From contig CBDDPY010000002.1 of NCBI GenBank assembly GCA_965232515.1, positions 6,720,001 through 6,784,000 of the forward strand: a stretch of 64,000 bases of DNA, read 5' to 3'. The notes beneath the pieces were generated by a model. That model made no database searches. It had not been told where the DNA came from and saw only the letters and a program-made list of their open reading frames with translations. Shown piece after piece: positions 13,500 to 36,781 of this stretch (the first letter of the stretch is position 1; the number at the start of each line of letters is the position of its first letter). Origin of the DNA: Alphaproteobacteria bacterium (GTDB lineage: Bacteria; Pseudomonadota; Alphaproteobacteria; GCA-2731375). Both the position numbers and the translations under genes were made by a program.

Positions 13500-13748
13500 T
13501 TAGCCGTCATCCGGCGTTTCCAAGCGGATGGCGAACGGGATGCCGTCAGCCGTGCCACGCAAGACAACGGCTGGGTTGCCGCCTGCGATCGCGGTGTCAC
13601 CTGGGGCTGGCGTTGCCTGAGGCGTGGATTCGGCCTCACGGGCATCCGCGCCGGCGAACAGGTCATCGAACTGTTTTCGGCTCTCCGCCAAGAGGCTGTC
13701 GAAGGCGTCCGACATGCCGCCAACGTTGCTGTCCGAATCAGACGCCAT
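13500..13748 (-). CDS. Small acidic hypothetical protein (82 aa) with an amphipathic helix
   Basis: ATG 6 nt after the isochorismatase stop; GC-typical codons; segment FDSLLAESRKQFDDLF resembles the N-terminal extension of the gene at 20009. Confidence 0.55.
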   Translation of the reverse strand: MASDSDSNVGGMSDAFDSLLAESRKQFDDLFAGADAREAESTPQATPAPGDTAIAGGNPAVVLRGTADGIPFAIRLETPDDG

Positions 13749-13754
13749 CGGTTT

Positions 13755-14465
13755 TCAGGCGTCCACCTTGGGGCGTTCGTTCCACCAGCGCTGGAAGTTT
13801 TCGTTCGCGGTGCCGCCTAGACCGGCGCTCGCCACCTGCTTGATGTACCCCAGCGCTTCGTCGGCCGAGACCACGTCGCAGTATTTGGCGTCGAGGTCGA
13901 AGAGGTTCGCCTCGTGCGGTCCGTCGGCCCGGTCGCCGACGGCCTCGCGCACCACGATGGTGAGATAGCCGCTCTGCATCGAGTCGAGCGCCGAGGCGCG
14001 GACGCAGCCGCTGGTCGTGCAGCCCGTGACGATGACCGTGTCGACTCCCTGCGATTTCAGGTAGGCGTCGGCGTCGGTGCCGAAGAACGCGCTGGCGAAT
14101 TTCTTCTCGACAACATATTCGCCGGGCTGCGGCCGGAGGCGGTCGTCGATCTCGACCATGTGCGAGCCGCGCCGCAGGATCGACAGCGACGGCACTTTCT
14201 TGATGAACACGCCGGCGTCGCGATAGTCGGCGTCATAGGCCGTGGTCGTATAGACGATTGGCAGGCCGCCGAGCCGGAACGCCGTCAACAGGTCCTTCGT
14301 GACCGCGATCTCGTTCGTGAGATCGCCGCCGAGCGGGGTCGACGGGTCGGTGAAGCCGTTGATGAAATCGACGATCAGCAGCGCCGGCTTCTGGCCGTAG
14401 CCCGAGCGGACGGCGAAGCCCTTCTGCTCATAGTCGTCCCGCGTGCCGCGCTGCCAGTCGTTCAT
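13755..14465 (-). CDS. Isochorismatase-family cysteine amidohydrolase (N-carbamoylsarcosine amidase/maleamate amidohydrolase-like)
   Basis: GGGAGG RBS; PALLIVDF, KKFASAFFGT and GCTTSGCVRAS give the D-K-C triad; HEANLFDLDAKYCDV. Confidence 0.9.
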   Translation of the reverse strand: MNDWQRGTRDDYEQKGFAVRSGYGQKPALLIVDFINGFTDPSTPLGGDLTNEIAVTKDLLTAFRLGGLPIVYTTTAYDADYRDAGVFIKKVPSLSILRRGSHMVEIDDRLRPQPGEYVVEKKFASAFFGTDADAYLKSQGVDTVIVTGCTTSGCVRASALDSMQSGYLTIVVREAVGDRADGPHEANLFDLDAKYCDVVSADEALGYIKQVASAGLGGTANENFQRWWNERPKVDA

Positions 14466-14658
14466 CACCCACCTCCCGATTACCGTCCGGCAATCATGCC
14501 CCAGCCGCGGGGCATTTTGAAAGCCGTTGTTCGTCCAACCGACGTCGCCGCCACGACGGAATTGTCGTTTGTGCTTGGCAAGGGCGGCGCGAGGCCGGAA
14601 ACTTGGGCCCCAACCCAAGAAGTCAATCAAGCAAAACTGGGTTTCCGGAGGCCAACAG

Positions 14659-15732
14659 ATGAGTGAAGAGTCCTACGACAACCGTTCCCCACGGCCGGCG
14701 GCGCACGGCCTCGGCGGCAAATCCGCCCTCGGGCCGCGCTACCGGCCGAGCTCGCTGGTGACCTCGCGCGGGCCGTCGGCGCTGTCCGCCGGCAGCCGCC
14801 AGTCCGCCGTCAGCGGCCGCAAGGAAATCTTCTGCGCCTTCGGCATCGACGTCGACGCGGTGGCCGGCTGGCTCGGCTCCTATGGCGGCGAAGACTCGCC
14901 CTGCGACATCTCCCGCGGCCTGTTCTCGGGCGAGGTCGGCACGCCGCGGCTGGTGCGGCTGTTCGACCGCATGGGAATCAAGACCACCTGGTTCATCCCC
15001 GGCCATTCCGTCGAAACCTTCCCCGAGCAGTGCAAGATGGTGGTCGACGCCGGCCACGAGATCGGCATGCATGGCTACAGCCATGAAAATCCCATCGCCA
15101 TGACGCCCGAGCAGGAAGAGGCCGTCATGGATAAGTGCATCGAGCTGATCGAGCGCCTGTGCGGCCGCCGCCCGACCGGTTATGTGGCGCCGTGGTGGGA
15201 GTTCAGCCCGGTCACCAATGAGCTGCTGCTGTCGAAAGGCATCAAGTACGACCACAGCCTGATGAACAACGACTTCCAGCCGTTCTACGTGCGGGTGGGG
15301 GACAGCTGGACGCCGATCGACTATTCGAAGCACCCGGACGAGTGGATGCGGCCGCTGGTGCGCGGCCAGGAGACCGATCTGATCGACATCCCCGGCAGCT
15401 GGCATCTCGACGATCTGCCGCCGATGATGTTCATCAAGTCGGCGCCGAACAGCCACGGCTTCGTCAATCCGCACGATGTCGAGGCCTACTGGCGCGACCA
15501 GTTCGATTGGGTCTATCGGGAGTACGACTACGCGGTCTACACGCTGACGATCCATCCCGACGTCTCGGGCCGGCCGCACGTGCTGATGATGCTGGAGCGC
15601 CTGTTCGAACATATCTCCAGCCATCCGGGCGTGCGCTTCTGCACCTTCGATGAAATCGCCGACGACTTCGCGCAGCGCTTCCCGCGCGGCTCCGTCGACA
15701 ACATCGAAGCGGCCTCGCTGGCGCAACGCTAG
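14659..15732 (+). CDS. Polysaccharide deacetylase-family (PuuE/HP0310-like) metal hydrolase with a ~50-aa N-terminal extension
   Basis: GGAGG RBS; [18 protein letters not shown]; [11 protein letters not shown]; GYVAPWWE; [10 protein letters not shown]. Confidence 0.9.
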
Positions 15733-15743
15733 GGCCGGGCGCT

Positions 15744-16079
15744 ATGTGCAGCCTCTGCGGCGTGCTCGGCGGCCGGGGCCACTGGACGGAAACGGCCAGC
15801 AACCCGGACGCTTTCCAGAGCCGCGCCGAGACCCATACCTGGCATCGTGAGCGGCAGACCCGAACGCGGCTCGTCAACGCGGTGCTGCGGCACTACGGGC
15901 TCAAGCTTGATGACTGGTCGGGCAACGCCTACATGCTGCGCAGCAAGACCGGCCGCACGGCGCTGGTCGACAACCTGACCGAGGTCTGGACCGCGGCCGA
16001 GCAGATCGGCCGCGGGGTCTGCGACCCGCTCGACGAGGACTTGCTGGCGTCCTTGTCCGATTCCGGGTCGGCGCGATGA
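15744..16079 (+). CDS. Small putative metal-binding protein (N-terminal CxxC)
   Basis: MCSLCG...HW...CDPLD; between the deacetylase and CobW genes, ATGA-coupled to the latter. Confidence 0.75.
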   Translation: MCSLCGVLGGRGHWTETASNPDAFQSRAETHTWHRERQTRTRLVNAVLRHYGLKLDDWSGNAYMLRSKTGRTALVDNLTEVWTAAEQIGRGVCDPLDEDLLASLSDSGSAR

Positions 16080-17128
16080 CCGACTATGCCGCCCTGATCC
16101 CGATCAACGTGATCACCGGCTTTCTCGGCAGCGGCAAGACCAGCCTGCTGCAGCGGCTGCTGGCCTCGCCAAGCCTGTGCGATACAGCGGTGCTGGTGAA
16201 CGAGTTCGGCGAGGTCGGGCTCGACCACCAACTGCTGCAGCATGTCGCCGAGAGCACGCTGCTGCTGGACAACGGTTGCCTGTGCTGTGCCGTGCGCGGC
16301 GATTTGCAGGACTCGTTGCGGCAGCTTTTCTCGCAGCGCGAGCGCGCCGAGATCTCGCCGTTCCGCCGGGTCGTGATCGAGACATCCGGCCTCGCCGATC
16401 CCGTGCCGATCGCCTACACCATCTTGGCCGAGCCGGTGATCCAGCATCATTTCCGTCTCGGCAACGTGGTCACCACCATCGACGCGGTGAATGGCGGACA
16501 GCAACTCGACGCCTACCCGGAATCGGTGAAACAGGCAGCCATCGCCGACCGCGTGGTCGTGACCAAGACCGATCTGGACGAGGAGGGACGTTTCGGCGCC
16601 CTGGAGCATCGCCTCCGGCAACTCAATCCGTCGGCGCCGGTGATCCGCGCGGCGGACGGGGTGCTGGACCCCGAACAGCTCCTGGCCCAGGACGTCTACG
16701 ATGCCGACAGCAAGCAGCGGGACGTCGAAGACTGGCTCGCCGCCCACACGGTGTCGACCGAAAACCAGGGTGGCCACGACCATACACACGGCGTCGCGTC
16801 GTTCTGCCTGACCTTCGATGCGCCGCTCGACTGGACGGCGTTCGGCATCTGGATGACCATGCTGCAGCACCGGCATGGCGAGAACGTGCTGCGTATCAAG
16901 GGCATGCTGAACGTCGCGGGTCAGTCGGCGCCGGTGCTGATCAATGGCGTCCAGCACATCGTGCACCCGCCGACCCATCTCGACGCCTGGCCCGATGCCG
17001 ACCACCGCTCGCGCATCGTTTTCATCACGCGCGGCCTCGACCAGGCGCGCATCGAAGCCTCGCTTGCCGCCTTCAACCGGTTGGCAAATCCCGTCGCGGC
17101 GCGGATGCCCGTCGACGCCTTGGCCTGA
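16076..17128 (+). CDS. CobW/COG0523 G3E GTPase metallochaperone
   Basis: GFLGSGKT; NEFGE; GCLCC; IETSG; TKTD; LRIKG; His-containing linker. Confidence 0.93.
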   Translation: MTDYAALIPINVITGFLGSGKTSLLQRLLASPSLCDTAVLVNEFGEVGLDHQLLQHVAESTLLLDNGCLCCAVRGDLQDSLRQLFSQRERAEISPFRRVVIETSGLADPVPIAYTILAEPVIQHHFRLGNVVTTIDAVNGGQQLDAYPESVKQAAIADRVVVTKTDLDEEGRFGALEHRLRQLNPSAPVIRAADGVLDPEQLLAQDVYDADSKQRDVEDWLAAHTVSTENQGGHDHTHGVASFCLTFDAPLDWTAFGIWMTMLQHRHGENVLRIKGMLNVAGQSAPVLINGVQHIVHPPTHLDAWPDADHRSRIVFITRGLDQARIEASLAAFNRLANPVAARMPVDALA

Positions 17129-17136
17129 TTAGACGA

Positions 17137-17937: not shown

Positions 17938-19995
17938 ATGACCAGTCGTCTCTGTATCGATGTTGGCGGGACATTCACCGATCTGTTGCTGGTCGACGAC
18001 GACAGCGGTCGGCGGACGCATCTGAAGACGCCGACGACGCCGGGCGATCCGGCGGCGGGAATCCTGAGCGGTATCGAGCAGATCACGGTCGAGGCCGGCG
18101 TCGCCGCGGCGGAGATCGGCGCGGTGCTGCACGGGTCAGGCTTGGCCGTCGACGCGGTGCGGCGGAAGACGGGCGCCAGGGTCGGCCTGCTGGTGACGCA
18201 AGGCTTCGAGCATCTGCTGCACCTGGCGCGCGCGCGGACGCCGGCGCCCATGGGCGGCTGGACGACGATGAAAAAGTCGGCGCCGCTCGCCGACATCGAA
18301 TTCACGCACGGCGTGACTGAACGCATCAACGCGCGCGGCGACGTGGTGACGCCGCTCGACGAGGCCAAGGCGCGCGCCGCCGTGCGCGCGTTGTTGGACG
18401 CCGGCGCCGACTCAATCGTCGTCGCATTCCTGCACGCCCATGCCAACCCCGCGCACGAGCAGCGGGTCAAGGCCCTGGTGGCGGAAATGGCTGCCGATAT
18501 GCCGGTGGCGCTGTCGTCCGAGATGTCGTCGCGGCACGGCGAGTACGAGCGCACGCTGGTCGCGGTGATGAACGCCTATCTGCGGCCTGGCATGCAGCGC
18601 TACCTGGACGACATCGAGACGAAGCTGCGCGGCGCGGATGTGGCGGCGCCGATCAGCATGATCCGTCCGGACGGCGGGCGCATGGCCGCGATCTATGCGA
18701 CCGAGCGGCCGGCCCAGACCATGCTGTCGGGTCCCGCCGCCGCCGTGTCCGCCGCCGCCGCGGCAGCGGCGCAGGCCGGACACCAGAATGCGATCAGCTT
18801 CGACATGGGCGGCACGTCCACCGGTGTCGCGGTCATCCGCGACGGCGAAAGCCAGACTGGTTCGCACATGACGTTCGCCGACGATGCCGTTGCCGTACCG
18901 TCAATCGACATGCGCAAGATCGGCCGGGGCGGCGGGGCGGTCGCCCATGTCCCGGTGACGGGCGCCCTGCGGGTCGGGCCCGAGGGCGCCGGCGCCGTTC
19001 CCGGCCCGGCCTGTTATGGTCGGGGCGGCGACCGGCCGACGTTGACCGATGCCAACGCCGTTCTGGGCCGCCTGCCGGGAACGCTGCTCGGCGGCCGGAT
19101 GCCGCTCGACACCCGCGCCGCCGAGGAAGCGATGGGCAAGCTCGCCCGGACGCTCGGTCTCGACACCTATCAGACGGCCCTCGCCATCGTCGACGTCTGC
19201 AACGAGGATCTGGCGGGCGAGGTGCGGCTGGCCGCGGTGGCGCACGGGCTGGACACCGGCGATATGGCGATGGTCGCCGGCGGCGGCGCCGGACCGATGC
19301 ATGCCGTCGCACTGGCGCGGCTGATCGGCTGTTATCCGGTTATCGTGCCGCCGACGCCCGGCCTGCTGTCGGCATGCGGCTTTCTGAACGCCGACATTCG
19401 CCATGAATGCGGTCGCGCTGTCATGCGCCTTGTCGACGAGATCGACAGCGCCCGTTTCGGTGACGTGCTCGACCGGCTGGCGGCCGACGCCACCGCGCTG
19501 CTCGAGGCCGAGCAGGTGGAACCCGCGGCCCGGTCGCTGCGGTTCGAGGCGGACCTGCGATATCTCCGTCAAGGCAGCGAATTCACGTTCACCGTCGAGC
19601 CGGCCGGTCTGCGCAACGGCGGTCTTCAGGATCTCGCCACACGCTTCGCGGCGGCACACGAGCGGCGGCACGGCGTCAAGCTCGATCAACCGATCGAGCT
19701 GCTGGCGATCCGCGCCATTGGCCTAGGTCGGACGGCGCAGCCGTCTGATGCGACCGTCGAGGCGGGTGGACCTGACGCCTCGGCCGCCATTGTCGACCAG
19801 CGCCAGGTCTATTTCGATCAGGGGTTTGTCGCGACTGACATCTACGACCGGGCTTTGCTGCGCGCGGGCAACCGCCTGATCGGACCGGCGATCGTCGAGC
19901 AGGCGGACGCGACCACGGTCGTGCATCCGGGGCATGTCGCCGAGGTCGATGCGCACGGCAACATGCTCATCCGGCCCGAGGCCGTTCGGCACTAG
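17938..19995 (+). CDS. Hydantoinase A/5-oxoprolinase ATP-binding subunit (HyuA-like), with divergent motifs
   Basis: IDVGGTFTD; SGPA; DMGGTST; PGPACYGRGG; GAGPMHA; GPAIVEQ..ATTVV. Confidence 0.9.
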   Translation: MTSRLCIDVGGTFTDLLLVDDDSGRRTHLKTPTTPGDPAAGILSGIEQITVEAGVAAAEIGAVLHGSGLAVDAVRRKTGARVGLLVTQGFEHLLHLARARTPAPMGGWTTMKKSAPLADIEFTHGVTERINARGDVVTPLDEAKARAAVRALLDAGADSIVVAFLHAHANPAHEQRVKALVAEMAADMPVALSSEMSSRHGEYERTLVAVMNAYLRPGMQRYLDDIETKLRGADVAAPISMIRPDGGRMAAIYATERPAQTMLSGPAAAVSAAAAAAAQAGHQNAISFDMGGTSTGVAVIRDGESQTGSHMTFADDAVAVPSIDMRKIGRGGGAVAHVPVTGALRVGPEGAGAVPGPACYGRGGDRPTLTDANAVLGRLPGTLLGGRMPLDTRAAEEAMGKLARTLGLDTYQTALAIVDVCNEDLAGEVRLAAVAHGLDTGDMAMVAGGGAGPMHAVALARLIGCYPVIVPPTPGLLSACGFLNADIRHECGRAVMRLVDEIDSARFGDVLDRLAADATALLEAEQVEPAARSLRFEADLRYLRQGSEFTFTVEPAGLRNGGLQDLATRFAAAHERRHGVKLDQPIELLAIRAIGLGRTAQPSDATVEAGGPDASAAIVDQRQVYFDQGFVATDIYDRALLRAGNRLIGPAIVEQADATTVVHPGHVAEVDAHGNMLIRPEAVRH

Positions 19996-20008: not shown

Positions 20009-22081
20009 ATGACAGAACAGAACACGCCCGCCCATCCGGTCTCGCTCGACGACCTGCTGCGGTCGAACAAGGATCAGTTCGACAAGGTCTTCGACACCCA
20101 GATGCGCCGCATCGACGTCGGCGGTACGACCTATACGCCGGCCGCCGAAGAGGCGCCGCCGCCCAAGGTGGTCGTTGCGGCCGAACAGGAAAGCGAAATG
20201 CCGTCGGCGTCGCCGTCCGGCCAGGAACCGGTGCTGGCGCTCGCCGCGCCGGAGACGCTCACGCGCGTCGAGGCCCGGCCGAGCGCGGACGTGGATCCGG
20301 AGCGCGCGCCGGACGCGATCTCGCTTGATCTGGTCGAGGGCGCGTTGCGGAACGCCCGGCGCGAGATGGACGCCGCTCTGCGGTGGCAGGCCATCTCGCC
20401 GGCGATCCGCGACCAGCATGACGCGTTTCCGACGCTTGCCGACGCCGAGGGCCGAATGCTCGCCGGTTCGTTCGGCGGCTTTCTGCGGGACATGTTGCAG
20501 CAGCAGATGCCGGATCTGCAGCCGGGCGACGTGATCCTGCAGAGCGACCCCTACCGCAGCGACGGCGCGGTTGGCCACGTGAACGACTGGCTGGTGCTGA
20601 TGCCGGTGTTCTACGGTGACGTGCCGGTCGGGTTCAGCGCCATGTGCGGCCACATGGTCGACGTCGGCGGGCCGGTGCCCGGCAGCCTGCCGACCTCGGC
20701 GACCTCGATCTTCGGCGAAGGCATCCGCATCCCGCCGATCAAGCTCTACGCGGGCGGTGAGCCGAACCGGGCCGTGCTCGACCTGTTATGGAATAACACC
20801 CGGACGCCCGACCTGAACTACGCCGATCTGATGGCGCTGGTTGCCGCCTGCCGGGTCGGCGAGCGGCGCCTGATCGAGATCTGCGACCGCTTCGGCGTGG
20901 CGCCTTTCCGGCGCGCCGGCGAGGCGCTGCGCGAACGCACGAAACGCACCCTGCGGCGCCTGATCGTCCAATATCTGCCCGAGGAACCGCAGTCGTTCGA
21001 GGACCATATCGACAGCGACGGACGGGGGAACGGGCCGTTCAAGATCAAGCTGACGGTCTGGCGCGAGGGCGAGCAGGCCTTCTTCGACTGGACCGGAACG
21101 GCCGCCCAGGCGCCGGGGCCGGTCAACTTCTATCTGCATGACGGTCTGTTTAAATCCGTCGTCGGCGCCTATTTGAGTCGGGCGGTCGATCCGCGTATCC
21201 AGCTCAACGATGCATTCTACGATCTGATCCACGTTACCCTGCCGAAGGGCTCGTTGCTGCGCCCGACATTTCCAGCAGCGCTTGGCGGACGCGCGCATGC
21301 CATGTCGCGGCAGTTCGACGTGCTGACGGGCGCCATGAGCCGCACCATGCCCCGCGAGGCGACGGCGGCCGGCTGCGGCTCCAGCCCGCAATTCCGCTTC
21401 GCCGGGATCGATCGCGACGGTCGACCCTTCCAGTTCGCGGATCACGTTTTCGGCGGCATTCCCGGCCGGCCCGTCGCCGACGGCATCGACGGCCATGCCT
21501 GGCAACCGATGGCCGAGACCGCGCCCGTCGAAACTCTCGAAAGCTGCTATCCTGTCATCGTCGAGCGTTGCGGCGCGGTGCCGGACTCCGGCGGGGTTGG
21601 ACAGCATCGCGGCGGCAACGGGGTGGAGAAGGTCTACCTGCTGCTCGAGACGGGGGAGGTGTCAATTCACGACGATCGCGAGCGCACGCAGCCCTGGGGT
21701 ATTGGGGGCGGCGGGCCGGGCGCCAGTTCGGCGAAGTGGATCGAGCGGAAGGACGGCGAGCGCGCGCCGCTGCCGTCGAAGATTGATCGTCTCAAGGTGC
21801 GCAACGGCGACCGCATTATCTTCCGCACCGCCGCCGGCGGCGGCTGGGGCGATCCGCTGGAGCGCGATCCGGTTCGGGTCCGTAAAGATGTGGTCCGCGG
21901 CCTCGCGACCGCCGAAGCGACGCGGGCGGCCTACGGCGTCGTGCTGACAGAGGACGGCCTTGAGATTGACATCGGCGCGACCGAGGAGTTGCGAGACGAA
22001 AAGCGCCGGAACCGGCGACCGACGTCGGCATTCGACTTCGGTGAGCGGCGGCGCGACAATGGCGACACGGATACGAGTTGA
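20009..22081 (+). CDS. Hydantoinase B/oxoprolinase subunit (HyuB-like) with a ~95-aa N-terminal extension
   Basis: GDVILQSDPY..GHVND; GHMVDVGG; EGIRIPPIK; DSGGVGQHRGG; GGGWGDPLERDP. Confidence 0.9.
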   Translation: MTEQNTPAHPVSLDDLLRSNKDQFDKVFDTQMRRIDVGGTTYTPAAEEAPPPKVVVAAEQESEMPSASPSGQEPVLALAAPETLTRVEARPSADVDPERAPDAISLDLVEGALRNARREMDAALRWQAISPAIRDQHDAFPTLADAEGRMLAGSFGGFLRDMLQQQMPDLQPGDVILQSDPYRSDGAVGHVNDWLVLMPVFYGDVPVGFSAMCGHMVDVGGPVPGSLPTSATSIFGEGIRIPPIKLYAGGEPNRAVLDLLWNNTRTPDLNYADLMALVAACRVGERRLIEICDRFGVAPFRRAGEALRERTKRTLRRLIVQYLPEEPQSFEDHIDSDGRGNGPFKIKLTVWREGEQAFFDWTGTAAQAPGPVNFYLHDGLFKSVVGAYLSRAVDPRIQLNDAFYDLIHVTLPKGSLLRPTFPAALGGRAHAMSRQFDVLTGAMSRTMPREATAAGCGSSPQFRFAGIDRDGRPFQFADHVFGGIPGRPVADGIDGHAWQPMAETAPVETLESCYPVIVERCGAVPDSGGVGQHRGGNGVEKVYLLLETGEVSIHDDRERTQPWGIGGGGPGASSAKWIERKDGERAPLPSKIDRLKVRNGDRIIFRTAAGGGWGDPLERDPVRVRKDVVRGLATAEATRAAYGVVLTEDGLEIDIGATEELRDEKRRNRRPTSAFDFGERRRDNGDTDTS

Positions 22082-28541: not shown

Positions 28542-29522
28542 TCAGAGCTCCTTGCGGATGTTGACGACGCGCAGGATCACGACCACGCCGATCATCATGG
28601 CCAGCATCAGCATCAACGCGTTGACCGCCGCGAAGGGATAGTTCGCGATCGCGTAATAGTTCAGGATCACCGTGCCGGTGGTCGTGGTCTTGCCGCCATA
28701 GACCACGACGGCCGTGGCGAATTCGCCCATGATCATGACGAAGATGAAGATCATGCCGATGGCCACGCCCGGCAGCGACAGCGGGCCGATGATCTCGCGG
28801 AAGATCTGGAACGACGTCGCGCCCATGTCGCGCGCGGCTTCCAGGATCGCCTTGTCGATCTTCGCCAGCGAAAAGAAGATCGGCCCGACGCAGAGCACGA
28901 CATAGAGCTGCACCAGCGCCATGGTGTAGCCGAACTCCGAATAGAGCAGCAGGCTTGTCGGCTTGTCGATGGCGCCGATATTGATCAGGAACGTGTTCAA
29001 CAGCCCGCGCCGGCCCAGCATCGGCAGCCAGGCCACGGCGCGGATCAGATAGCTGGTCCAGAACGGCACCATGGCCAGCAGGAACAGCGCCATCTGCCAC
29101 TTGAACGACTGCACCTGCATGGCCAGGAAGTAGGCGATGGGATAGCCGACGATCAGGCACAGCACCATGACCGCCAGCGTGAAATAGAGCGTCGAGCCCA
29201 GCGTGCGCAGGAACACGCTCGGCGTCAGGAAGCGATCACTCTCGGGGTCGAAAAAGCCCTCCGCCTCGAAATAGGCGCGATAGTTCTCCAGCGTCAGCGC
29301 CGGCTCCATACCGTGGCCGGACGACGACCAGAAGCTGAAGACGATGATGCCGAGCAGCGGCAGCACCAGAAACAGGATCAGCCAGGCGCTCGGCAGCGTG
29401 ATCAACCAGGCCGTCGGGAAGCCGGGCTCGCGCCGCAGCTTCTTGGCCTCGTCGATTGCTTGCGGCGGGACCGGCTGGCTGCCGATCAGGCCGGCGTGAT
29501 GTGTATCGGCGATCTGCTGCAT
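28542..29522 (-). CDS. PotB-like ABC permease
   Basis: GYPIAY; PFWTSYLIRAVAW; ILEAARDMGA. Confidence 0.92.
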   Translation of the reverse strand: MQQIADTHHAGLIGSQPVPPQAIDEAKKLRREPGFPTAWLITLPSAWLILFLVLPLLGIIVFSFWSSSGHGMEPALTLENYRAYFEAEGFFDPESDRFLTPSVFLRTLGSTLYFTLAVMVLCLIVGYPIAYFLAMQVQSFKWQMALFLLAMVPFWTSYLIRAVAWLPMLGRRGLLNTFLINIGAIDKPTSLLLYSEFGYTMALVQLYVVLCVGPIFFSLAKIDKAILEAARDMGATSFQIFREIIGPLSLPGVAIGMIFIFVMIMGEFATAVVVYGGKTTTTGTVILNYYAIANYPFAAVNALMLMLAMMIGVVVILRVVNIRKEL

Positions 29523-29614: not shown

Positions 29615-30904
29615 TTAGGCGCTCAGGAACTCGGTCCAGCGCTTCACCAGATAGTCGTTCTCGTCCATCAGCGAGTTCCAGACGGCGATGTTGCTGAAGC
29701 GGTCCCAATAGGAGCCGCCGTCGCGCACTTCGCCCTTTTCGACGATGATGGTGTCGAACGGATCCGGCAGCTCCTTCGCCGCCGGCTTGCCCATGTACCA
29801 GTAGTCCCACTCTTCGGGCTCGAGGTGCTTCTTCACGTTCTCGGGCACCGACATGTAGTAGCCCTGGCGCGCCACGAACGCGCCGGCCCAGCCGTCGAGC
29901 CACCAGTTGAGATATTCATAAGCGGCGTCGAGCTGCTTGCCCGTGACCTTGGCCGAGATCGCCAGGCCGCCGTGCCAGCCGCGCATGCCTTCCTTCGGGA
30001 AGGCGTAGATGCAGGGCACGCCTTCCGCCTTCACGGCGGTGACGGCGGGCGACCACATGCTTTGCACCGCGACCTCGCCGCTGACCATCAGGTTCACCGA
30101 CTGGCCGAAGGTTTCCCAGAACGCTCGGAAATGGCCTTCCTTCTTCCTCTCGATCAGGAAATTGATCAGGAAGTCGATTTCCTCCCGGGTCATGTTGCCC
30201 TTGTCTTTGAAGGTGTAGGCGCCCATGGCCTCGATCGCCAGCGCGGCGTCCATGGTGCCGATCTGCGGCACGTTCAACAGCGCCACCTGGCCCTTGAAGT
30301 CGGCGCTGAACAGGTCGGCCCAGCTCTCGATGTCGCGGCCGGTTTCTTCCGGGTTGTAGCCGAGCGAATCCGCGTTGTGCCAGCCGGGCAGCATCGAGAT
30401 GTAGCGCGACGGGCCATCGACCCGGTTGCCGTCGGCGTCCAGCCAGAGGTGCCGAAACGGCGCATCGCCCTGGCCGGCATTCGATTCCGGTGTCAGTTTG
30501 CCGGTTTTGGAGAGGTTGGTGACCTTATCCCATTCCTTGATTCGTTGCGTATCGATCGGCTGCCAGACCTTCGCCGGGATGAAGACATCCATGTCGTTGA
30601 AATAGCCTTCGGCGATCTCGTATTGATCGTTTTGGTTCAGCATCTTGCCGAACATGGCGCCATACCCCAACGCCTGCCCGCGTACCCCGATGCCGAGATC
30701 CTGGGACGCCTTGCCCTGAATCTCGTTGATGACGCTCACGCCCAAACCGATGGTGCGCAGCGATTCCGCGCCATGACCGATGCTGGGGAAGCCGCCGACG
30801 AACGAACCCGCCGCGACGGCGCTCGCGGTCGTGCCCATGAACTTGCGGCGGCTGATGCCCCTGCTCTTGGTCTTGCTGGTACCCGTTGGCTTCTTTGCCG
30901 TCAT
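29615..30904 (-). CDS. PotD/PotF-like Tat-exported substrate-binding protein
   Basis: SRRKFMG Tat motif; SWADLF; PKEGMRGW; upstream of Pot-type permeases. Confidence 0.88.
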   Translation of the reverse strand: MTAKKPTGTSKTKSRGISRRKFMGTTASAVAAGSFVGGFPSIGHGAESLRTIGLGVSVINEIQGKASQDLGIGVRGQALGYGAMFGKMLNQNDQYEIAEGYFNDMDVFIPAKVWQPIDTQRIKEWDKVTNLSKTGKLTPESNAGQGDAPFRHLWLDADGNRVDGPSRYISMLPGWHNADSLGYNPEETGRDIESWADLFSADFKGQVALLNVPQIGTMDAALAIEAMGAYTFKDKGNMTREEIDFLINFLIERKKEGHFRAFWETFGQSVNLMVSGEVAVQSMWSPAVTAVKAEGVPCIYAFPKEGMRGWHGGLAISAKVTGKQLDAAYEYLNWWLDGWAGAFVARQGYYMSVPENVKKHLEPEEWDYWYMGKPAAKELPDPFDTIIVEKGEVRDGGSYWDRFSNIAVWNSLMDENDYLVKRWTEFLSA

Positions 30905-31088
30905 ATTCTGCCTCCCGTTGTTACTGGGTAATCCCGTGTCTCACGGTCCCAAAGATGTGGATCGCTATGCCAATGGCGTATCCGCTAACAGCTAGCTTTT
31001 ATTTAGGATTTTCCATGACGTGCTTTGTCGAATGATAGCTTAGAGTCGGGGGCTGGGAAACGCAAAGAAAGTAAGGGGGAGGCGGAGT

Positions 31089-32561
31089 TTGAGCGTACTG
31101 ATCAAGAACGGCCGCGTGGTTACGGCGAACGACGATTACCGGGCCGATATCTTCATCAACAACTCCACCGTCGACGTTATCGGGCGCAACCTGGAGATCG
31201 ACGCCGACCGGGTGATCGACGCCGCCGGCAAGCTGGTGATTCCGGGCGGCATCGATCCGCACACGCATATGCAGATGCCGTTCGGCGGCACCGAGACGTC
31301 GGACACGTTCGAGACCGGTACGCGCGCCGCGGCCTTCGGCGGCACCACCTGCATCATCGATTTCGCCATTCAGGCCCGCGGCACGTCGACCATCGCCGCG
31401 CTTGACGACTGGCACGCCAAGGCCGAGGGCCGGACCGCCATCGACTACGCCTTCCACATGATCATCACCGACATGCCGGAAGAGCGCATGCCGGAAATGC
31501 GCCGCCTGTCGGATGAGGGTGTCACCAGCTACAAGATGTTCATGGCTTATCCCGGCGTGCTGCTGTCGGACGACGCCACGATCTTCCGCGCCATGCGCAA
31601 GGCCGGCGAAGACGGCACGCTGGTCTGCATGCATGCCGAGAACGGCATCGTCATCGACGAGCTGGTCAAGATCGCGCTGGCCGAGGGCAAGACCACGCCG
31701 CGCTATCACGCCTACACCCGGCCGACCCGGCTCGAGGCAGAGGGCGCGCACCGGGCGCTCGCCATCGCCGAGGTCGCGCAGGCGCCGGTCTATATCGTTC
31801 ACCTGAGCTGCTACGAGGCGCTGCAGGAGTTACGTCTGGCGCAGGCCCGCGGCGTCATGGCCCATGCCGAGACCTGTCCGCAATACCTGCTGCTGGACGT
31901 CGATCATTACGACGAGCCCGGATTCGATGGCGCGAAATACGTGCTGACGCCGCCGCTGCGCGAGCAATGGCACCAGGACGAGCTCTGGAACGGGCTGCGC
32001 ACCAGCGCGCTGGACGTGATCTCGACCGACCATTGCCCGTTCTGCATGCGCGAGCAGAAGGAATTGGGGCGCGACGATTTCAGCAAGATCCCGAACGGCG
32101 GCCCCGGCGTCGAGAACCGCATGAGCCTGATCTACCACCACGGCGTCAATCTCGGGCGGATTTCGCTGAACCGCTTCGTCGAACTGACCTCGACCAAGGC
32201 GGCGAAGATCTTCGGCCTGTTCCCCCGCAAGGGCACGATCGCCGTCGGCAGCGATGCCGATATCGTGATCTTCGATCCCGAGCGCGAGGAGACGATCAGC
32301 CGCTTCAACGCCCACACCCATCACATGAACATCGACTACAGCGCCTACGAGGGCTTCAAGGTCAAGGGCTTTACCGAGACCGTGCTGTCGCGCGGCAAGA
32401 TCGTAATCGACAACGGCAACTATGTCGGCCGCCCGGGCGACGGTTCATTCGTCAAGCGCGGCCCCTACGGCGGCCAATACGCCAACGCGCACGCCCACAT
32501 GCGCCGCGATCCGCTCGACCCCGCCCACGGCCTCGGCTCGCCGCGCCATCGGCACAGCTGA
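31089..32561 (+). CDS. hydA: Dihydropyrimidinase (D-hydantoinase) with a His/Arg-rich C-terminal extension
   Basis: PGGIDPHTH; GGTT; YKMFMAY; MHAENG; YIVHLS; ETCPQYL; TDHCPF; IPNGGPGVE. Confidence 0.93.
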   Translation: MSVLIKNGRVVTANDDYRADIFINNSTVDVIGRNLEIDADRVIDAAGKLVIPGGIDPHTHMQMPFGGTETSDTFETGTRAAAFGGTTCIIDFAIQARGTSTIAALDDWHAKAEGRTAIDYAFHMIITDMPEERMPEMRRLSDEGVTSYKMFMAYPGVLLSDDATIFRAMRKAGEDGTLVCMHAENGIVIDELVKIALAEGKTTPRYHAYTRPTRLEAEGAHRALAIAEVAQAPVYIVHLSCYEALQELRLAQARGVMAHAETCPQYLLLDVDHYDEPGFDGAKYVLTPPLREQWHQDELWNGLRTSALDVISTDHCPFCMREQKELGRDDFSKIPNGGPGVENRMSLIYHHGVNLGRISLNRFVELTSTKAAKIFGLFPRKGTIAVGSDADIVIFDPEREETISRFNAHTHHMNIDYSAYEGFKVKGFTETVLSRGKIVIDNGNYVGRPGDGSFVKRGPYGGQYANAHAHMRRDPLDPAHGLGSPRHRHS

Positions 32562-32587
32562 CGCCGCGGACGTTTTATGATGGCGGA

Positions 32588-33058
32588 TTAGGCCTCGGTC
32601 TGCTTCGCCGGGCGGATGATCTTCAAGAGCCAGAAGATGATGCAGAAAATCCCGGTCAGGATGATCAGGGCCACGACCGCGGCGAGGCGCTTGCCGAACT
32701 CAGCGTCGAGCGTGTAGCCCGGCTGCAACAGATAGACGCAGAGCACCTGCACCGACTGCAGCGTCGCGCCGCCGCTCAACAGGATGGCGACGAAGGTGGA
32801 GCCGCGCAGCGAACTCAGGACCACGGACTCGATGCTGTTCTGCTGCACGATATGCACTCGGTAGGCGTGCCAGTGGTAGGTGCAGAAGCCGATGATGCCG
32901 ACGATCAGCGCGACCCAGAAGATCGCGTTGTCGAAGCCGACGCCGTGGATCACGGTGTTGAACAGGTCTTCGAACGGCTTATAGAAGTATAGAAAAATCA
33001 GAACGATGATGAAGACGATGTAGCCGACCAGCGTCCAGAACCACTGCCACCCTGTCAT
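32588..33058 (-). CDS. Uncharacterised 4-TM membrane protein (paralog of 17137..17664)
   Basis: FLYFYKPFE; FDNAIFW; YHW; GATLQ; DAEFGKRL. Confidence 0.8.
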   Translation of the reverse strand: MTGWQWFWTLVGYIVFIIVLIFLYFYKPFEDLFNTVIHGVGFDNAIFWVALIVGIIGFCTYHWHAYRVHIVQQNSIESVVLSSLRGSTFVAILLSGGATLQSVQVLCVYLLQPGYTLDAEFGKRLAAVVALIILTGIFCIIFWLLKIIRPAKQTEA

Positions 33059-33156
33059 AGCTTACGACCCACTGTTTTTCTTGGAACCGGTTTGGAAGTT
33101 GGCGCCATCACAGCATTGATTGGTGACGCGCGCCAAGCGCATTCGCGAACCCATGA

Positions 33157-34245
33157 TTACGCCGCCGCTTCCGGGATCGCGACGATCAGCAGGATTCCGA
33201 AAAGGATCATAAAGACCGCGTCCTTGGCGGCGCCGAGGCCGGACCGCTCCGAGCCGGTCGTGGCGATCAGCATGATGATCTCAAGCACAAAGAAGACGAT
33301 GGCCAGGAAGAAGAACGGCCAGATCGTGCTCCACCAGGACAGCCCCTCGGGCGCCGCGACCGACTGCACCAGCCGCCAGATCAGCAGCATGATCGGCAAC
33401 AGGATCATGAACCCATAGGCCAGCAGAAAGCGATATCGGGTGAGCGCGCGGTCCAGCAGCCAGAAGACGACGAAGAACAGCACGATGAACAGCAGATCCA
33501 GAACGAGCGCCGCGTAGTTTTCGCCTGTCGCCGCCTGCGTCAGGTTCAGGTAGCCCAGGATCAGCAGGAACACGAGGCCGTCGCAGAACAGCCATTCGCG
33601 CACCGTTTCGCCGCCGGACTTGACGCTCCAGGCCCGTGTCGCCTTGTCGAACAGCAAGACCAGCGCGACCGCCAGGCTGGCCGGATACACGAGCTGCAGC
33701 ATCAACGTGTATTGCTGCGGTCCGGGCACATAGATCCAGTTCAACAGCAGAAACGCCACGGCCAGCACCAGCAGGCCAATCAGCCGCGCGCCCGACGACG
33801 TGGCGGTCGCCGGCGGCGCGCCGGCTTCGGCGGCCGCAGGTGAGTCGCTCACATTGACGCTGATCGCCCGCGATTGCCTCGGCAGCCGGACGATGGCGAA
33901 AACGAGAAACCCGATCAGGCCCACGATGCCGGCGATGGCCATGACGGTCAGGAAGACGACCGATCGCCTGTCGCCGCGCCAGTCGGCGGCGGCGAGTTGC
34001 GCTTCGGCCGCCGGATAGAACTGCCAGATCAGGATGGCGGCAATGACAATGAGCGCCGCCAGCGCCAGGAGAAACTCGTACCAGTTCGGCGCCGGCGCAA
34101 CCGCCTGCCCATCGGCCGTCGCCGTGGCCGGTCGCCGCGCGTACCGGGTGATCAAATAAATCACGAACGCGCCGATCGCGACCGCGGCGATGGCGATCAT
34201 CACGCCGACGAAATCCAGCGACCTGCTATCCACGTATCGCCCCAC
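33157..34245 (-). CDS. Uncharacterised polytopic membrane protein (~10 TM)
   Basis: Many hydrophobic segments with Ala/Pro linkers; no transporter signature recognised; start uncertain (34245 or GTG 34233). Confidence 0.75.
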   Translation of the reverse strand: MGRYVDSRSLDFVGVMIAIAAVAIGAFVIYLITRYARRPATATADGQAVAPAPNWYEFLLALAALIVIAAILIWQFYPAAEAQLAAADWRGDRRSVVFLTVMAIAGIVGLIGFLVFAIVRLPRQSRAISVNVSDSPAAAEAGAPPATATSSGARLIGLLVLAVAFLLLNWIYVPGPQQYTLMLQLVYPASLAVALVLLFDKATRAWSVKSGGETVREWLFCDGLVFLLILGYLNLTQAATGENYAALVLDLLFIVLFFVVFWLLDRALTRYRFLLAYGFMILLPIMLLIWRLVQSVAAPEGLSWWSTIWPFFFLAIVFFVLEIIMLIATTGSERSGLGAAKDAVFMILFGILLIVAIPEAAA

Positions 34246-34317: not shown

Positions 34318-35004
34318 TCACAACGCGTTTCGCAGTTCCAGTCCGTCGAGATAGCTCAGCACGCGGTCCAGCGGCTCGACGTCGCCGAACTTGGCGTCGA
34401 TATCGAACAGGTTCCATTCGACCACGCCCGCGACCCGGTCGCCGACCGCCTCGCGCACGACGATGGGCCGGAAGCCCTCGGCGATGGCGTCCTCGACCGT
34501 ATTGCGCACGCAGGCCGCCATGGTCACGCCCGTGACGATCACCGTGTCGACCTGGGCCGCGCGCAGGAAACCGGCCAGCGGCGTGCCGTGGAAGGCCGAA
34601 GCCCGCTTCTTGACGATGACCTGCTCGTCCGCCTCAGGCGCGATGCGGTCATCGATGGCCACTGCCTCCGAACCCAGCTTCAGCAGCTCGGCCGGGATCT
34701 TCTTGTGCCACAGTCCCATGTCCGTGTTCGGGCCCTCGGTCACGGCATAGGCCGTGGTCGTGTAGACGATCGGAATGCGTTTCGCGCGCGATGCCGCCAG
34801 CAACTGCTGCACGCTCGGGATAATCACATCCATATCGTCGCACGAGAACGCGTGTCCCGGCCGCGTCCACGCGTTGGCGAGGTCGATATTGATCAGTGCC
34901 GGCCGCTCACCGAAGCCGACACGACGTTGAAAGCCGCGATCCTGATACAGCGCGGAATCGGCGGCAAAGACCTTTTCCAAGGCTTCTTTGAGTTCGTCGG
35001 TCAT
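34318..35004 (-). CDS. Second isochorismatase-family cysteine amidohydrolase
   Basis: RPALINID; KKRASAFHGT; GVTMAACVRNT; NLFDIDAKFGDV. Confidence 0.9.
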   Translation of the reverse strand: MTDELKEALEKVFAADSALYQDRGFQRRVGFGERPALINIDLANAWTRPGHAFSCDDMDVIIPSVQQLLAASRAKRIPIVYTTTAYAVTEGPNTDMGLWHKKIPAELLKLGSEAVAIDDRIAPEADEQVIVKKRASAFHGTPLAGFLRAAQVDTVIVTGVTMAACVRNTVEDAIAEGFRPIVVREAVGDRVAGVVEWNLFDIDAKFGDVEPLDRVLSYLDGLELRNAL

Positions 35005-35139
35005 TGTGGGCAGATGCTAGCACCCGCCAAAATGACTGTCGATGCAGGGCGGTGCGGGAAAATTGACACTCCGACCGGCAGCCCGCAACATGATCGGGGC
35101 GACCAACCAGCGACAGCGGACGCAAAGGAGCATCGACCG

Positions 35140-36039
35140 ATGCAGGCAGATCAGGAGGTCGAGGGTGCGACCATCCGCCCCCTGACACCGGCTGTCGGGG
35201 CCGAGATTTCGGGCGTCGATCTCGCCAATCTGACCGACCGGCAATTCGCGCTGATCTCCGATGCGTTCGACCGCTATGCCGGCCTGTTGTTCCGGGATCA
35301 GAAGCTGTCGCCGGACGATCTGGTGGCGTTCAGCCGGCGCTGGGGCGAGCTCGACGTGGCGCCGGTCATGGAGAACGGGCGGACCGCCGTGCCGGGTTAT
35401 CCCGAGATCTACATCGTGTCGAACGTCAAGGACGCGGACGGCAAACCGATCGGCAGCCTGGGCGCGGGCGAGGCCGTCTGGCACACAGACATGTCCTACC
35501 TGCCGAGCCCGCCCTATGCGTCCATGCTCTATGCCCTCGAGGTGCCGCCGTCGGGTGGCGACACCTCGCTCTGCGGCATGAAGGCCGCCTATGACAGCCT
35601 GCCGACCGAGCTGCGCGAACGCATCGCCGGCCTGGAGATCAAGCATGACGGCACCTACAACTCGGGCGGCTACCTGCGCGAGGGGGTGACCGCCAGCGAC
35701 GATCCCGTGAACTCGGTGGGACAGGTGCATCCCGCGGTCTGCCGACACCCGGCCACGGGCGACGCGCTGCTCTATCTCGGTCGCCGCCGCAACGCCTACG
35801 TCATGGGCCTTGGCCTCGAGGAGTCGGAAGGTCTGCTCGACGAATTGTGGGACTATGCGGTGCGGCCGGAACACACCTATACGCACCATTGGCGGGTCGG
35901 CGACGTTCTGCTCTGGGACAACCGCGCGACGATGCACCGCCGCGACCCCTTCGACGCGACGACGCGACGCCTGATGCAACGTACCCAGATCAAGGGCCAG
36001 TCGCAGCCGCGCGCCGCGGTCGATGCCGGCGCGAGCTGA
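35140..36039 (+). CDS. TauD/TfdA-family Fe(II)/2-oxoglutarate dioxygenase
   Basis: AAGGAG RBS; GAEISGVDL; WHTD; GGDT; WDNRATMH; R.M.R. Confidence 0.92.
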   Translation: MQADQEVEGATIRPLTPAVGAEISGVDLANLTDRQFALISDAFDRYAGLLFRDQKLSPDDLVAFSRRWGELDVAPVMENGRTAVPGYPEIYIVSNVKDADGKPIGSLGAGEAVWHTDMSYLPSPPYASMLYALEVPPSGGDTSLCGMKAAYDSLPTELRERIAGLEIKHDGTYNSGGYLREGVTASDDPVNSVGQVHPAVCRHPATGDALLYLGRRRNAYVMGLGLEESEGLLDELWDYAVRPEHTYTHHWRVGDVLLWDNRATMHRRDPFDATTRRLMQRTQIKGQSQPRAAVDAGAS

Positions 36040-36781
36040 CGCGGGCATCGGACGACGGCGGACCTCTGCCAGCCGATGGGTCTGGCTGGGTGTCGTTCTC
36101 GCTGTCCTGGCGGGCGCGCCGCTGCGGGCGGAGACGCCGGTCGATCTTGAGCTGATCCTCGCCGTCGATGCCTCCGGCAGTGTCGACCCGCGCGAATACG
36201 CCCTGCAGATGTCGGGCATCGCATCGGCGTTTCGCGACGACGAGGTGATTGCCGCAATTCAGTCGGGTCCGTTGGCGCGCATCGGCGTCGCGGTCGTGAT
36301 CTGGTCGGAGTCGCGCCGGCCGAAAGACCTGATCCCTTGGCAGGTCGTGTCGGACCGGGCGTCGGCGGCCGTCTTCGCCCACACCGTCGAGACCCACCCG
36401 CGCAACATCCCGGACGGCGGCACGGGTATCGGCCGTGCCGTGCTCTACGCCATCAGCCTGTTCGACCGCAACGCGCTCACGAGTTCCCGGCACGTCATCG
36501 ACGTGTCCGGCGACGGGCGTGAGACGACTTTTCGCGAGTATAGCGTGCCGCCGGCCCAGGCTCGCGCCCGTGCGATCTCCCGCGGAATCACCGTCAACGG
36601 CCTGGCGATCCTCACCGACGATTCCGAGCTCACCGAGTATTACCGTCGTGAGGTCGTCGGCGGTACCGACGCGTTTGCCATGTCGGCCGCGTCCTACGAC
36701 GACTTCGCCACGGCCATGCGCCGCAAGCTGATCCGTGAGATCGATTACCGGCCGATCATCAGCCGGCTCTCGCCGCGATAG
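36023..36781 (+). CDS. DUF1194 (vWA-like) secreted protein
   Basis: Signal peptide; LELILAVDASGSVD (MIDAS DxSxS); VIDVSGDG; TVNGLAI; RRKLIREI. Confidence 0.88.
   Translation: MPARADAGIGRRRTSASRWVWLGVVLAVLAGAPLRAETPVDLELILAVDASGSVDPREYALQMSGIASAFRDDEVIAAIQSGPLARIGVAVVIWSESRRPKDLIPWQVVSDRASAAVFAHTVETHPRNIPDGGTGIGRAVLYAISLFDRNALTSSRHVIDVSGDGRETTFREYSVPPAQARARAISRGITVNGLAILTDDSELTEYYRREVVGGTDAFAMSAASYDDFATAMRRKLIREIDYRPIISRLSPR

Follow-up and report, generated by a model that had tools for sequence, protein, structure and literature searches.

Bacterial flotillins such as FloT, FloA and YqiK are regarded as general scaffolds with diffuse phenotypes, and the identity of their clients has been an open question for more than 10 years. 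In the canonical arrangement, represented by Escherichia coli YqiJ-YqiK and Bacillus subtilis YuaF-YuaG/FloT, an SPFH2-type flotillin is encoded with an NfeD2-type partner, and the survey of prokaryotic SPFH operons that describes such pairs counts 17 genomes with a flotillin-type gene lacking one (PMC2636767). In Staphylococcus aureus, FloA directly binds IsdF, the permease of a heme ATP-binding cassette (ABC) importer, and is needed for its function; the ATPase FhuC is encoded apart (PMC10147376). In Pelagibacterales, HIMB59 and Pseudothioglobus, a flotillin gene of 1,977 bp is fixed beside a rhodopsin paralogue in the flotillin-associated rhodopsin (FAR) cluster (PMC10308929), and the eukaryotic flotillin complex forms a closed right-handed helical barrel of 44 subunits whose ends are 32 and 19 nm wide (10.1101/2024.05.09.593390). 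Here we describe a 938-residue flotillin encoded within a catabolic gene cluster of an alphaproteobacterium (assembly GCA_965232515.1), on a stretch of 64,000 nucleotides (nt) of contig CBDDPY010000002.1 (positions 6,720,001 to 6,784,000), referred to below as the window. The region studied lies at 13500-36781, and its conserved part covers ~21 kb (13500-35004; Table 1). Judging from the families of its enzymes, this conserved cluster would serve the uptake and stepwise hydrolysis of a nitrogen heterocycle (a cyclic amide or ureide), and the flotillin in its midst may be a dedicated scaffold for it.

One line of evidence comes from the conservation of the neighbourhood. Scanning one genome per species, we obtained 78 related loci of other species, searched them with tblastn using all window proteins, and counted presence only in loci whose flank reaches far enough. 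The gene for HyuB, the beta subunit of a hydantoinase/oxoprolinase-family enzyme, lay beside the flotillin gene in 69 of 69 loci; the alpha-subunit gene hyuA (66 of 66), a gene for a protein with four transmembrane helices (4-TM; 65 of 65) and an ABC ATPase gene (75 of 75, with a median gap of 27 nt between the tblastn hits of flotillin and ATPase) were found just as regularly. Frequencies were 58 of 62 for a deacetylase-type hydrolase, 56 of 63 for a CobW-family GTPase, 55 of 63 for a 111-residue protein and 47 of 61 for the isochorismatase-type hydrolase 1 upstream; permease 1 (39 of 73), permease 2 (38 of 73) and the binding protein (35 of 70) of an importer occurred downstream, and dihydropyrimidinase (DHP) was present in 26 of 67. 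The genes counted had the same order and orientation as in the window, and wherever a locus extended to that point, the 156- and 362-residue membrane proteins were found together. An arrangement seen again in 78 loci from other species is far more than a chance one.

A first-pass annotation of this DNA had placed a giant flotillin in the middle of an operon reading hyuA-hyuB-flotillin-ATPase-flavin monooxygenase, and the open reading frames (ORFs), together with Pfam and NCBIfam scans, bear out this gene content, order and strand. Its wider list of cluster members needed trimming: the amidases, deacetylase, CobW, DHP, transporter and membrane proteins belong, but the monooxygenase was found in only one of the 78 loci (L014, from a near-identical relative), and the TauD and DUF1194 genes in none (0 of 78 each). 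It had also asked whether long flotillins elsewhere are likewise accompanied by hydantoinase, amidase, deacetylase and 4-TM genes, which the counts above for hyuA, hydrolase 1, the deacetylase and the 4-TM gene confirm; instead of unrelated neighbourhoods, even distant long flotillins were found in analogous importer-enzyme operons, as described below.

According to their labels, the 78 loci represent several groups of Alphaproteobacteria, three betaproteobacterial bins, four gammaproteobacterial bins and one bin of SAR324; nearly all are metagenome bins. Median identities across the loci were 66% for the flotillin, 54% for HyuA and 62% for HyuB, and the full-length flotillin frame was intact, at 55-98% identity, in 78 species. 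Within the window's family, 20 of the 24 other genomes carry an orthologue, and among 400 genomes sampled evenly across the phylum no flotillin match exceeded 41% identity; this patchy distribution across classes suggests that the cluster is transferred as a unit. The importer permeases can lie on either side: all 5 genomes examined that have none downstream carried a 78-81% identical permease ~6 kb outside the locus on its upstream side, and in one locus of this type housekeeping genes follow the ATPase. Even where the permeases sit on the other side of the cluster, the ATPase gene stays after the flotillin.

Within the window, hyuA, hyuB, flotillin, ATPase and monooxygenase genes share one strand with successive gaps of 13, 83, 16 and 44 nt. 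A promoter and terminator scan found no convincing terminator between genes of this run, although its counts were not above those of shuffled sequence (4 versus 2.5 +/- 1.6 and 10 versus 11.4 +/- 3.5), and two promoter-like sites were seen where hyuA and the 4-TM gene diverge. The importer's sole ATPase gene is codirectional with the flotillin and not with the permeases. As with FloA, a flotillin here accompanies an ABC importer whose ATPase gene lies apart from the permease; unlike FloA, which is described as short, general and not encoded with its transporter, the cluster flotillin sits inside a catabolic operon, directly before the ATPase (PMC10147376).

The flotillin itself is an SPFH protein. 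Its Band_7 domain (PF01145) scored 53.8 bits against a cut-off of 23.6 (E 3.1e-14), and a Flot domain (PF15975) at ~729-816 remained under its cut-off (24.3 versus 27 bits; E 3.5e-5), where the genome's own YqiK scores 153 bits; the NCBIfam FloT equivalog was not reached (31.9 versus 700 bits). It is 33% identical to that YqiK (585 residues) over 431 residues (E 1e-66). With YqiK and YuaG/FloT it has in common an N-terminal anchor, the SPFH domain, hendecad-type helices and a candidate Flot-type C-terminal region, seen as the sub-threshold match (PMC2636767); it differs from these canonical proteins in lacking an NfeD/YqiJ partner, in being ~350 residues longer through a duplicated module, and in a further helical domain at its C-terminus. 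At E<=0.001 it has more than 1,759 relatives, of which the best 120 are 880-1023 residues long and 52-98% identical; the orthologues within the loci have 804-938 residues.

This length has a regular basis. The region after the SPFH domain has a periodicity of 29 residues (autocorrelation peaks at lags 29, 58 and 11) and contains a tandem duplication: gap-free alignment of residues 209-402 with residues 409-602 scores 412, versus 99.5 +/- 11 for shuffles. Among 40 homologues, all length differences fell at one site near residue 543 and were approximately multiples of 29 (-57 to +87), which indicates that the number of repeats sets the length of the protein. The repeats are visible in the protein alone, as Tandem Repeats Finder returned only small arrays from the DNA; repeats of 44 residues occur in a distant long flotillin, and YqiK shows periods of 11 and 33. 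Flotillin length showed no correlation with the length of the HyuB extension described below. Varying by whole units, the wall repeats offer a natural series for asking whether helix length sets assembly size.

An AlphaFold2 model of the flotillin monomer was of low confidence (mean predicted local distance difference test score, pLDDT, 59.7; predicted template modelling score 0.25). It contains a membrane helix at 2-29, an alpha/beta SPFH part and long helices at 266-436, 445-554, 565-710 and 720-795, with a better-defined C-terminal helical domain at 857-936 (blocks at about 80). The best fold match of this low-confidence model in the PDB was the Band 7 domain of flotillin-2 (E 1.2e-4), with SPFH domains and the flotillin complex among the further top matches; sequence searches of the PDB with the flotillin, a flotillin profile and a HyuB-extension profile gave no significant match. 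The hendecad-type periods (lags 11, 29 and 58) would fit the wall of a helical barrel. Barrel assembly around membrane clients is to be expected from the fold class that the protein shares with HflK/C-FtsH, prohibitin, erlin, stomatin and flotillin cages; HflK/C differs in being periplasmic and in holding a protease, whereas the cluster flotillin is predicted to be cytoplasmic, with an importer and a soluble ATP-dependent hydrolase as candidate clients. A quick maximum-likelihood tree was built from the N-terminal 330 residues of 45 flotillins (the window's own, a subsample of 25 from the 78 loci, 18 from distant loci, and the YqiK of this genome). In it, the cluster flotillins formed one side of a long branch (Shimodaira-Hasegawa-like approximate likelihood ratio test 99, length 1.87), apart from canonical YqiK and the other long flotillins; on this phylogeny they are a separate deep clade.

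The host genome has six Band_7 genes, and both of its NfeD matches adjoin two other SPFH genes; no NfeD/YqiJ gene was found near the cluster flotillin. A canonical pspA-yqiJ-yqiK operon is present at 2.23 Mb (Table 1), so that the cluster flotillin appears to be an extra, specialised copy. That operon is preceded by a gene for a 182-residue protein with a weak 'pre-tape-measure' match. Considered as a hidden YqiJ, the 4-TM protein showed no detectable relation to YqiJ (hhalign probability 0.1%). The earlier statement that the flotillin has no recognisable partner is accordingly true of NfeD/YqiJ, but it misses three candidates, namely the 4-TM protein, an 82-residue protein encoded beside hydrolase 1, and the Rad52-like proteins of relatives.

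The last two candidates emerged from the N-terminus of HyuB. Alignment of stop-to-stop translations corrected the HyuB start to 20009 and gave a conserved N-terminal extension of 100 residues, consisting of a short peptide and a linker rich in Pro, Ala and Glu ahead of the Hydantoinase_B domain. The peptide has the form (S/T)(L/F)DDLLxxNKxQFDK(I/V)F in all 60 of the HyuB orthologues that were parsed; a Pro-, Ala- and Ser-rich linker comes after it, and in 56 of the 60 a domain of ~70 residues follows. A second copy lies at the N-terminus of an 82-residue ORF that begins 6 nt past the stop of hydrolase 1 and continues with a linker and one short conserved piece; in DNA of such high GC content this ORF is readily overlooked. 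These two are exactly the sites matched by a loose peptide pattern in a six-frame translation of the whole genome (14.8 million residues), and in the six-frame translation of the 78 loci (3.1 million residues) the pattern occurred only in HyuB N-termini (67 loci) and in the gene beside hydrolase 1 (33 loci). A likeness between the HyuB peptide and the C-terminus of the 111-residue protein was also considered, and was rejected as too short to count.

Searching 1.84 billion representative proteins with a profile of the HyuB extension, we obtained 588 matches at E<=0.001 and 109 at E<=1e-10. Some are standalone proteins of 160-180 residues in which peptide, linker and domain all recur; the set also contains ordinary members of the Rad52/Rad22 family, and 23 of 23 of these that were aligned match PF04098. 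Comparison of the standalone family with the PF04098-matching alignment gave an hhalign probability of 99.3% (E 1.3e-20, 80 columns). By these profile comparisons, the domain carried by HyuB and by the standalone protein in relatives is a truncated Rad52-like domain, a recombination-protein fold whose presence on a hydantoinase subunit in a catabolic cluster is unexpected in itself. The standalone gene directly follows hydrolase 1 in 13 of 13 metagenome loci (scanned with a 7-sequence alignment) and, among genome loci with sufficiently long flanks, in 36 of 43; two loci without it carry mini-ORFs like that of the window instead (97 residues in L063 and 80 in L069). No Rad52-like core was found anywhere in the window's genome, and the profile matched only the window's own gene among the 400 sampled genomes of the phylum. 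As read from these alignments, both proteins lost their Rad52-like domain in the lineage of the window, but each retained the leading peptide. A rearranged version of the cluster was seen in a soil metagenome (L114 in Table 1), where a Rad52-like gene is followed by a second, distant hyuAB pair (35% and 31% identity) and then by the 362- and 156-residue membrane proteins, permeases, binding protein and DHP.

A tether of a related kind occurs elsewhere in the same genome. In the closest paralogous hyuAB pair (43% and 48% identity), HyuA and not HyuB carries an N-terminal helix and a Pro/Ala-rich linker of ~130 residues; a transporter resembling the major facilitator superfamily lies downstream, and no flotillin is near. 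Tethered hydantoinases may be commoner than is known.

Other flotillins show a comparable association with importers. Among 18 loci of more distant flotillins (26-41% identity), 10 had two ABC ATPase hits within ~5 kb, in a pattern of an ATPase pair followed by the flotillin. One of them (L088 in Table 1) encodes LivH/LivM, LivG, a LivF fused to the N and C domains of the Tm-1-like family UPF0261, a PEP-hydrolase-like protein, a flotillin of 967 residues (Band_7 and Flot, with 44-residue repeats), an SRPBCC protein and CoxM/CoxS-like proteins. Like the cluster in the window, it combines a long flotillin, an ABC importer ATPase and cytosolic enzymes in one operon, and tandem repeats lengthen the wall; it differs in its flotillin clade, in its repeat length (44 rather than 29 residues), in its other enzymes and in having an enzyme fused to the ATPase, a fusion that makes a tethered enzyme plausible by analogy. 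The FAR cluster likewise holds a flotillin at a fixed place in a syntenic unit (~26 kb) with transporters and metabolic enzymes across distant taxa, although its fixed neighbour is a rhodopsin paralogue, whereas hyuB and an ABC ATPase take that place here and no rhodopsin is present (PMC10308929). The cluster described here belongs with these known flotillin-associated clusters, to which it adds a repeat-tuned wall, a unique peptide common to two proteins and a hydantoinase subunit bearing a Rad52-like domain. Together with the Liv-type operons and the rhodopsin cluster (PMC10308929), it points to bacterial flotillins often being private scaffolds of uptake-and-catabolism systems. Given the strict synteny and the presence of distant long flotillins in analogous ABC importer-enzyme operons, the functional tie between the flotillin and the genes for uptake and ring opening is well supported.

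The explanation we prefer, to which we would still assign somewhat less than an even chance, is that a dedicated flotillin scaffold joins the importer to the ATP-dependent lactamase HyuAB, with contacts suggested by gene order and by the peptide. The five hydrolases belong to families that cleave amides or ureides, so the compound is presumably a nitrogen heterocycle with several C-N bonds. A Pot-type ABC importer would bring it in, and HyuAB (as lactamase or hydantoinase), DHP, the two isochorismatase-type amidases and the deacetylase-type hydrolase would open the ring and strip its nitrogen, the CobW GTPase presumably serving the metal-dependent deacetylase-type hydrolase. The flotillin would be anchored by its N-terminal helix with its bulk in the cytoplasm, a predicted topology based on the Lys-Arg pair that follows the helix. 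Like other SPFH proteins, it would assemble side by side into a large helical-barrel oligomer, the wall of which the 29-residue repeats would lengthen. Such an assembly could organise a membrane patch holding the importer (via the separate ATPase or the permeases) together with HyuAB, so that imported substrate would meet the first ATP-dependent enzyme at the membrane; the HyuB peptide and its flexible linker, as a tether, would recruit HyuAB, the peptide being common to the small protein beside the first amidase. At the level of genes, this flotillin subfamily is locked to a few candidates (the ABC importer, the peptide-bearing HyuAB and the 4-TM protein), which makes for concrete, testable partners.

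Several observations weigh against this proposal or limit its reach. We infer the oligomer, its topology and all physical contacts, the contacts from gene order, and the monomer model is of such low confidence that the arrangement of the helices (hairpin versus extended) is unreadable. The 78 loci show conservation rather than independent origins, because they share ancestry and the whole cluster may be transferred together. Short peptides had been reported by the first-pass annotation as shared among the terminal extensions of several enzymes; what stands is one N-terminal motif on only two cluster proteins, HyuB and the 82-residue ORF, and apart from the HyuB peptide and linker no motif was seen in common among the termini of the deacetylase, hydrolase 1, the HyuB C-terminus, DHP and the 111-residue protein. 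The peptide's hydrophobic moment (0.47) was reached by 5.5% of 2000 shuffles and is not clearly above chance. Since the paralogous HyuA has a tether with no flotillin nearby, such tethers need not aim at a flotillin. Among the enzymes, only DHP exceeds its NCBIfam cut-off, all other enzyme matches falling below theirs, and for this reason we do not name the compound. Evidence of expression is weak: contigs from two RNA libraries of one organism, 95-99% alike, cover 29 of 30 and 26 of 30 bins of 13700-33600, flotillin included, and these near-identical contigs suggest that a close relative lives with that organism and may express the cluster, with DNA carry-over being possible; two PolyA RNA runs yielded no matching reads and do not count as a test. 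A complex prediction run without controls on flotillin residues 640-938 (beyond the repeat region at ~300-630), the ATPase and HyuB residues 1-100 gave an interface score (ipSAE) of 0.00 in two runs, which speaks neither for nor against a contact.

Much of the same evidence could be read as concerning the importer alone, with the flotillin assembling, stabilising or gating it (for instance by holding the ATPase to the permeases), making no contact with HyuAB, and the HyuB peptide used otherwise. This is an unlikely but serious candidate, favoured by the ATPase gene following the flotillin in 75 of 75 loci, by the ABC ATPase genes near 10 of 18 distant flotillins, by the precedent of FloA with IsdF and FhuC (PMC10147376) and by the similar tether on a paralogous HyuA with no flotillin nearby. 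It leaves unexplained why the flotillin lies directly after hyuB in 69 of 69 loci, inside the hyuAB unit, and why HyuB and a second small protein carry a cluster-specific peptide that was kept after loss of the Rad52-like domain. The fixed position between hyuB and the ATPase is hard to reconcile with a flotillin that has no specific partner and is merely co-induced to keep the membrane intact or fluid under a harmful substrate or transporter load. Canonical flotillins do occur next to PspA and YqiJ in operons of the stress type, this genome's own included, and PMC11237479 appears to point in the same direction; the presence of that canonical operon, however, leaves the genome already supplied, the cluster flotillin forms a deep clade of its own in our tree and has no YqiJ/NfeD partner, and other flotillin subfamilies are also tied to particular importer-enzyme operons, so that we hold general membrane protection to be rather improbable. 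A single capture of the flotillin gene by a mobile catabolic island, where it has since survived with no role, would agree with its patchy occurrence across classes and its absence from the even 400-genome sample of the phylum. We find this scarcely credible for a full-length frame kept at 55-98% identity in 78 species, as conserved as the enzymes and strictly placed, when independent flotillin subfamilies have the same kind of association.

At the other extreme stands a sealed compartment, in which the barrel closes over a membrane patch on the cytoplasmic side and encloses the ATPase and HyuAB, the peptide acts as an encapsulation-like signal, and the repeats set the height of the chamber. 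Cargo proteins of bacterial microcompartments (BMCs) carry encapsulation peptides, which are short N-terminal peptides with a flexible linker, and the HyuB peptide and linker recall them. BMC shell genes (PF00936) are absent from the whole 96%-complete genome in a search whose controls were positive in E. coli and Synechococcus (the first-pass annotation had drawn an analogy to metabolosomes only); the helical wall is duplicated and varies by whole repeats, and the eukaryotic flotillin complex offers a closed barrel of 44 subunits as a model (10.1101/2024.05.09.593390). Yet the peptide is on two proteins only and the other five hydrolases have no common signal, HyuAB and the ATPase require steady exchange of ATP and ADP, and the monomer model is of low confidence; we consider such a sealed compartment improbable. 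An elaborated form, to which we also give little credence, would have a flotillin chamber on the cytoplasmic face with its height set by the 29-residue repeats, the ATPase and HyuAB enclosed or docked via the 17-residue peptide, and Rad52-like rings as multivalent, peptide-bearing hubs in most lineages; if true, uptake and the first ATP-dependent ring-opening step would be directly coupled in the equivalent of a metabolosome made from flotillin. The earlier suggestion of an SPFH cage or microdomain that co-localises uptake and ring opening is therefore upheld in its functional tie, through synteny, and not in its cage or compartment, given the low-confidence monomer and a peptide on two proteins. 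The probability left beyond these readings and the preferred scaffold between importer and HyuAB belongs to something not considered here.

The gene map (Table 1) was drawn from the ORF listing and from Pfam and NCBIfam scans. The host genome comprises 7.39 Mb in four contigs and is 96% complete, and the guanine-plus-cytosine fraction of the window ranges from 0.58 to 0.74.

Table 1. Features of the cluster in the window, and loci elsewhere that are referred to in the text (L numbers denote extracted loci, C2 a contig of the host genome).
Feature	Position	Strand	Remarks
82-residue ORF	13500..13748	-	absent from the first-pass list; no Pfam family; shared peptide 13656-13709
Isochorismatase-type hydrolase 1 (amidase candidate)	13755..14465	-	PF00857, E 6.6e-37; below RutB and BiuH cut-offs
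Polysaccharide-deacetylase/PuuE-like hydrolase	14659..15732	+	PF01522, E 3.9e-18; PuuE model 81 bits vs cut-off 425
111-residue protein	15744..16079	+	no Pfam or NCBIfam family; M-C-x-L-C-G N-terminus, C-D-P-L-D toward C-terminus
CobW-family GTPase (metallochaperone type)	16076..17128	+	PF02492, PF07683; start overlaps the 111-residue gene by 4 nt
4-TM protein, 175 residues	17137..17664	-	no Pfam family; divergent from hyuA
HyuA (hydantoinase/oxoprolinase-family alpha subunit)	17938..19995	+	PF01968, E 4.7e-78; PF05378; PF19278
HyuB (beta subunit, 690 residues)	20009..22081	+	PF02538, E 3e-139; shared peptide 20039-20092; Hydantoinase_B residues 102-616
Long SPFH/flotillin, 938 residues	22165..24981	+	Band_7 PF01145, residues 47-180
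PotA-like ABC ATPase	24998..26080	+	PF00005; PotA model 340 bits vs cut-off 482
Flavin monooxygenase	26125..27591	+	lineage-specific insertion, outside conserved cluster
Permease 1	27713..28540	-	importer membrane part
Permease 2	28542..29522	-	Pfam 23.9 bits, below cut-off 26.4; named from weak match and position beside permease 1
PotD/F-like binding protein	29615..30904	-	importer periplasmic part
Dihydropyrimidinase/D-hydantoinase (DHP)	31089..32561	+	TIGR02033, 614.4 bits vs cut-off 393.25
156-residue paralogue of 4-TM protein	32588..33058	-	no Pfam family
362-residue polytopic membrane protein	33157..34245	-	no Pfam family
Isochorismatase-type hydrolase 2	34318..35004	-	PF00857, E 1.2e-30; 45% identical to hydrolase 1
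TauD-family dioxygenase	~35140..36039	+	neighbour only, outside conserved cluster
DUF1194 protein	36023..36781	+	neighbour only, outside conserved cluster
Canonical pspA-yqiJ-yqiK operon	L105 (C2:2219000-2238999), 9794-13541	-	host genome
Closest paralogous hyuAB	C2 ~841200-845500	-	host genome
Rad52-like HyuB extension	L007:7629-8195		also in 55 other loci
Standalone Rad52-like gene	L046:776-1252	-
Standalone Rad52-like gene	L109:10001-10453
Standalone Rad52-like gene	L111:10001-10444
Rearranged cluster	L114, 4953-14468		soil metagenome
Liv-type flotillin operon	L088 (G056:C1:4149500-4169499), 4705-16999		distant flotillin

For HyuA, the nearest named model was the alpha subunit of caprolactamase. 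The pair has the full HyuA and HyuB domains of the ATP-dependent hydantoinase/oxoprolinase family (caprolactamase CapAB, N-methylhydantoinase, 5-oxoprolinase and acetophenone carboxylase), and falls far under the equivalog cut-offs of CapAB (448.8 and 211.2 versus 1000 bits). To our knowledge, no described member of this family has an N-terminal peptide or Rad52-like extension or a flotillin neighbour. The genome encodes at least 12 hyuA and at least 12 hyuB paralogues, plus many paralogues of TauD and the flavin monooxygenase. A literature search covering few subscription journals and no supplements found no description of the cluster, nothing on a flotillin or SPFH protein with a hydantoinase, no flotillin-oxoprolinase work on this cluster, no account of Rad52 with a hydantoinase, and none of the enzyme set (any four of hydantoinase, isochorismatase, polysaccharide deacetylase, CobW and dihydropyrimidinase).

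Several of the smaller features are conserved as well. The deacetylase has a conserved N-terminal extension of ~55 residues, and the C-terminal extension of the hydrolase is likewise conserved. In the 111-residue protein the M-C-x-L-C-G N-terminus is invariant in the loci; its AlphaFold2 model (pLDDT 73.7) has a disordered N-terminus, a helix, three strands and two helices, and a fold search with it returned no PDB match at E<=0.001. As a guess, this protein could be a metal-handling partner of CobW and the deacetylase. In the ESM Atlas, the 4-TM and 111-residue proteins matched 'hypothetical protein' clusters only, and neither the 4-TM paralogues nor the 362-residue protein have a Pfam family. 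The two 4-TM paralogues are 35% identical and have conserved polar residues within their membrane helices.

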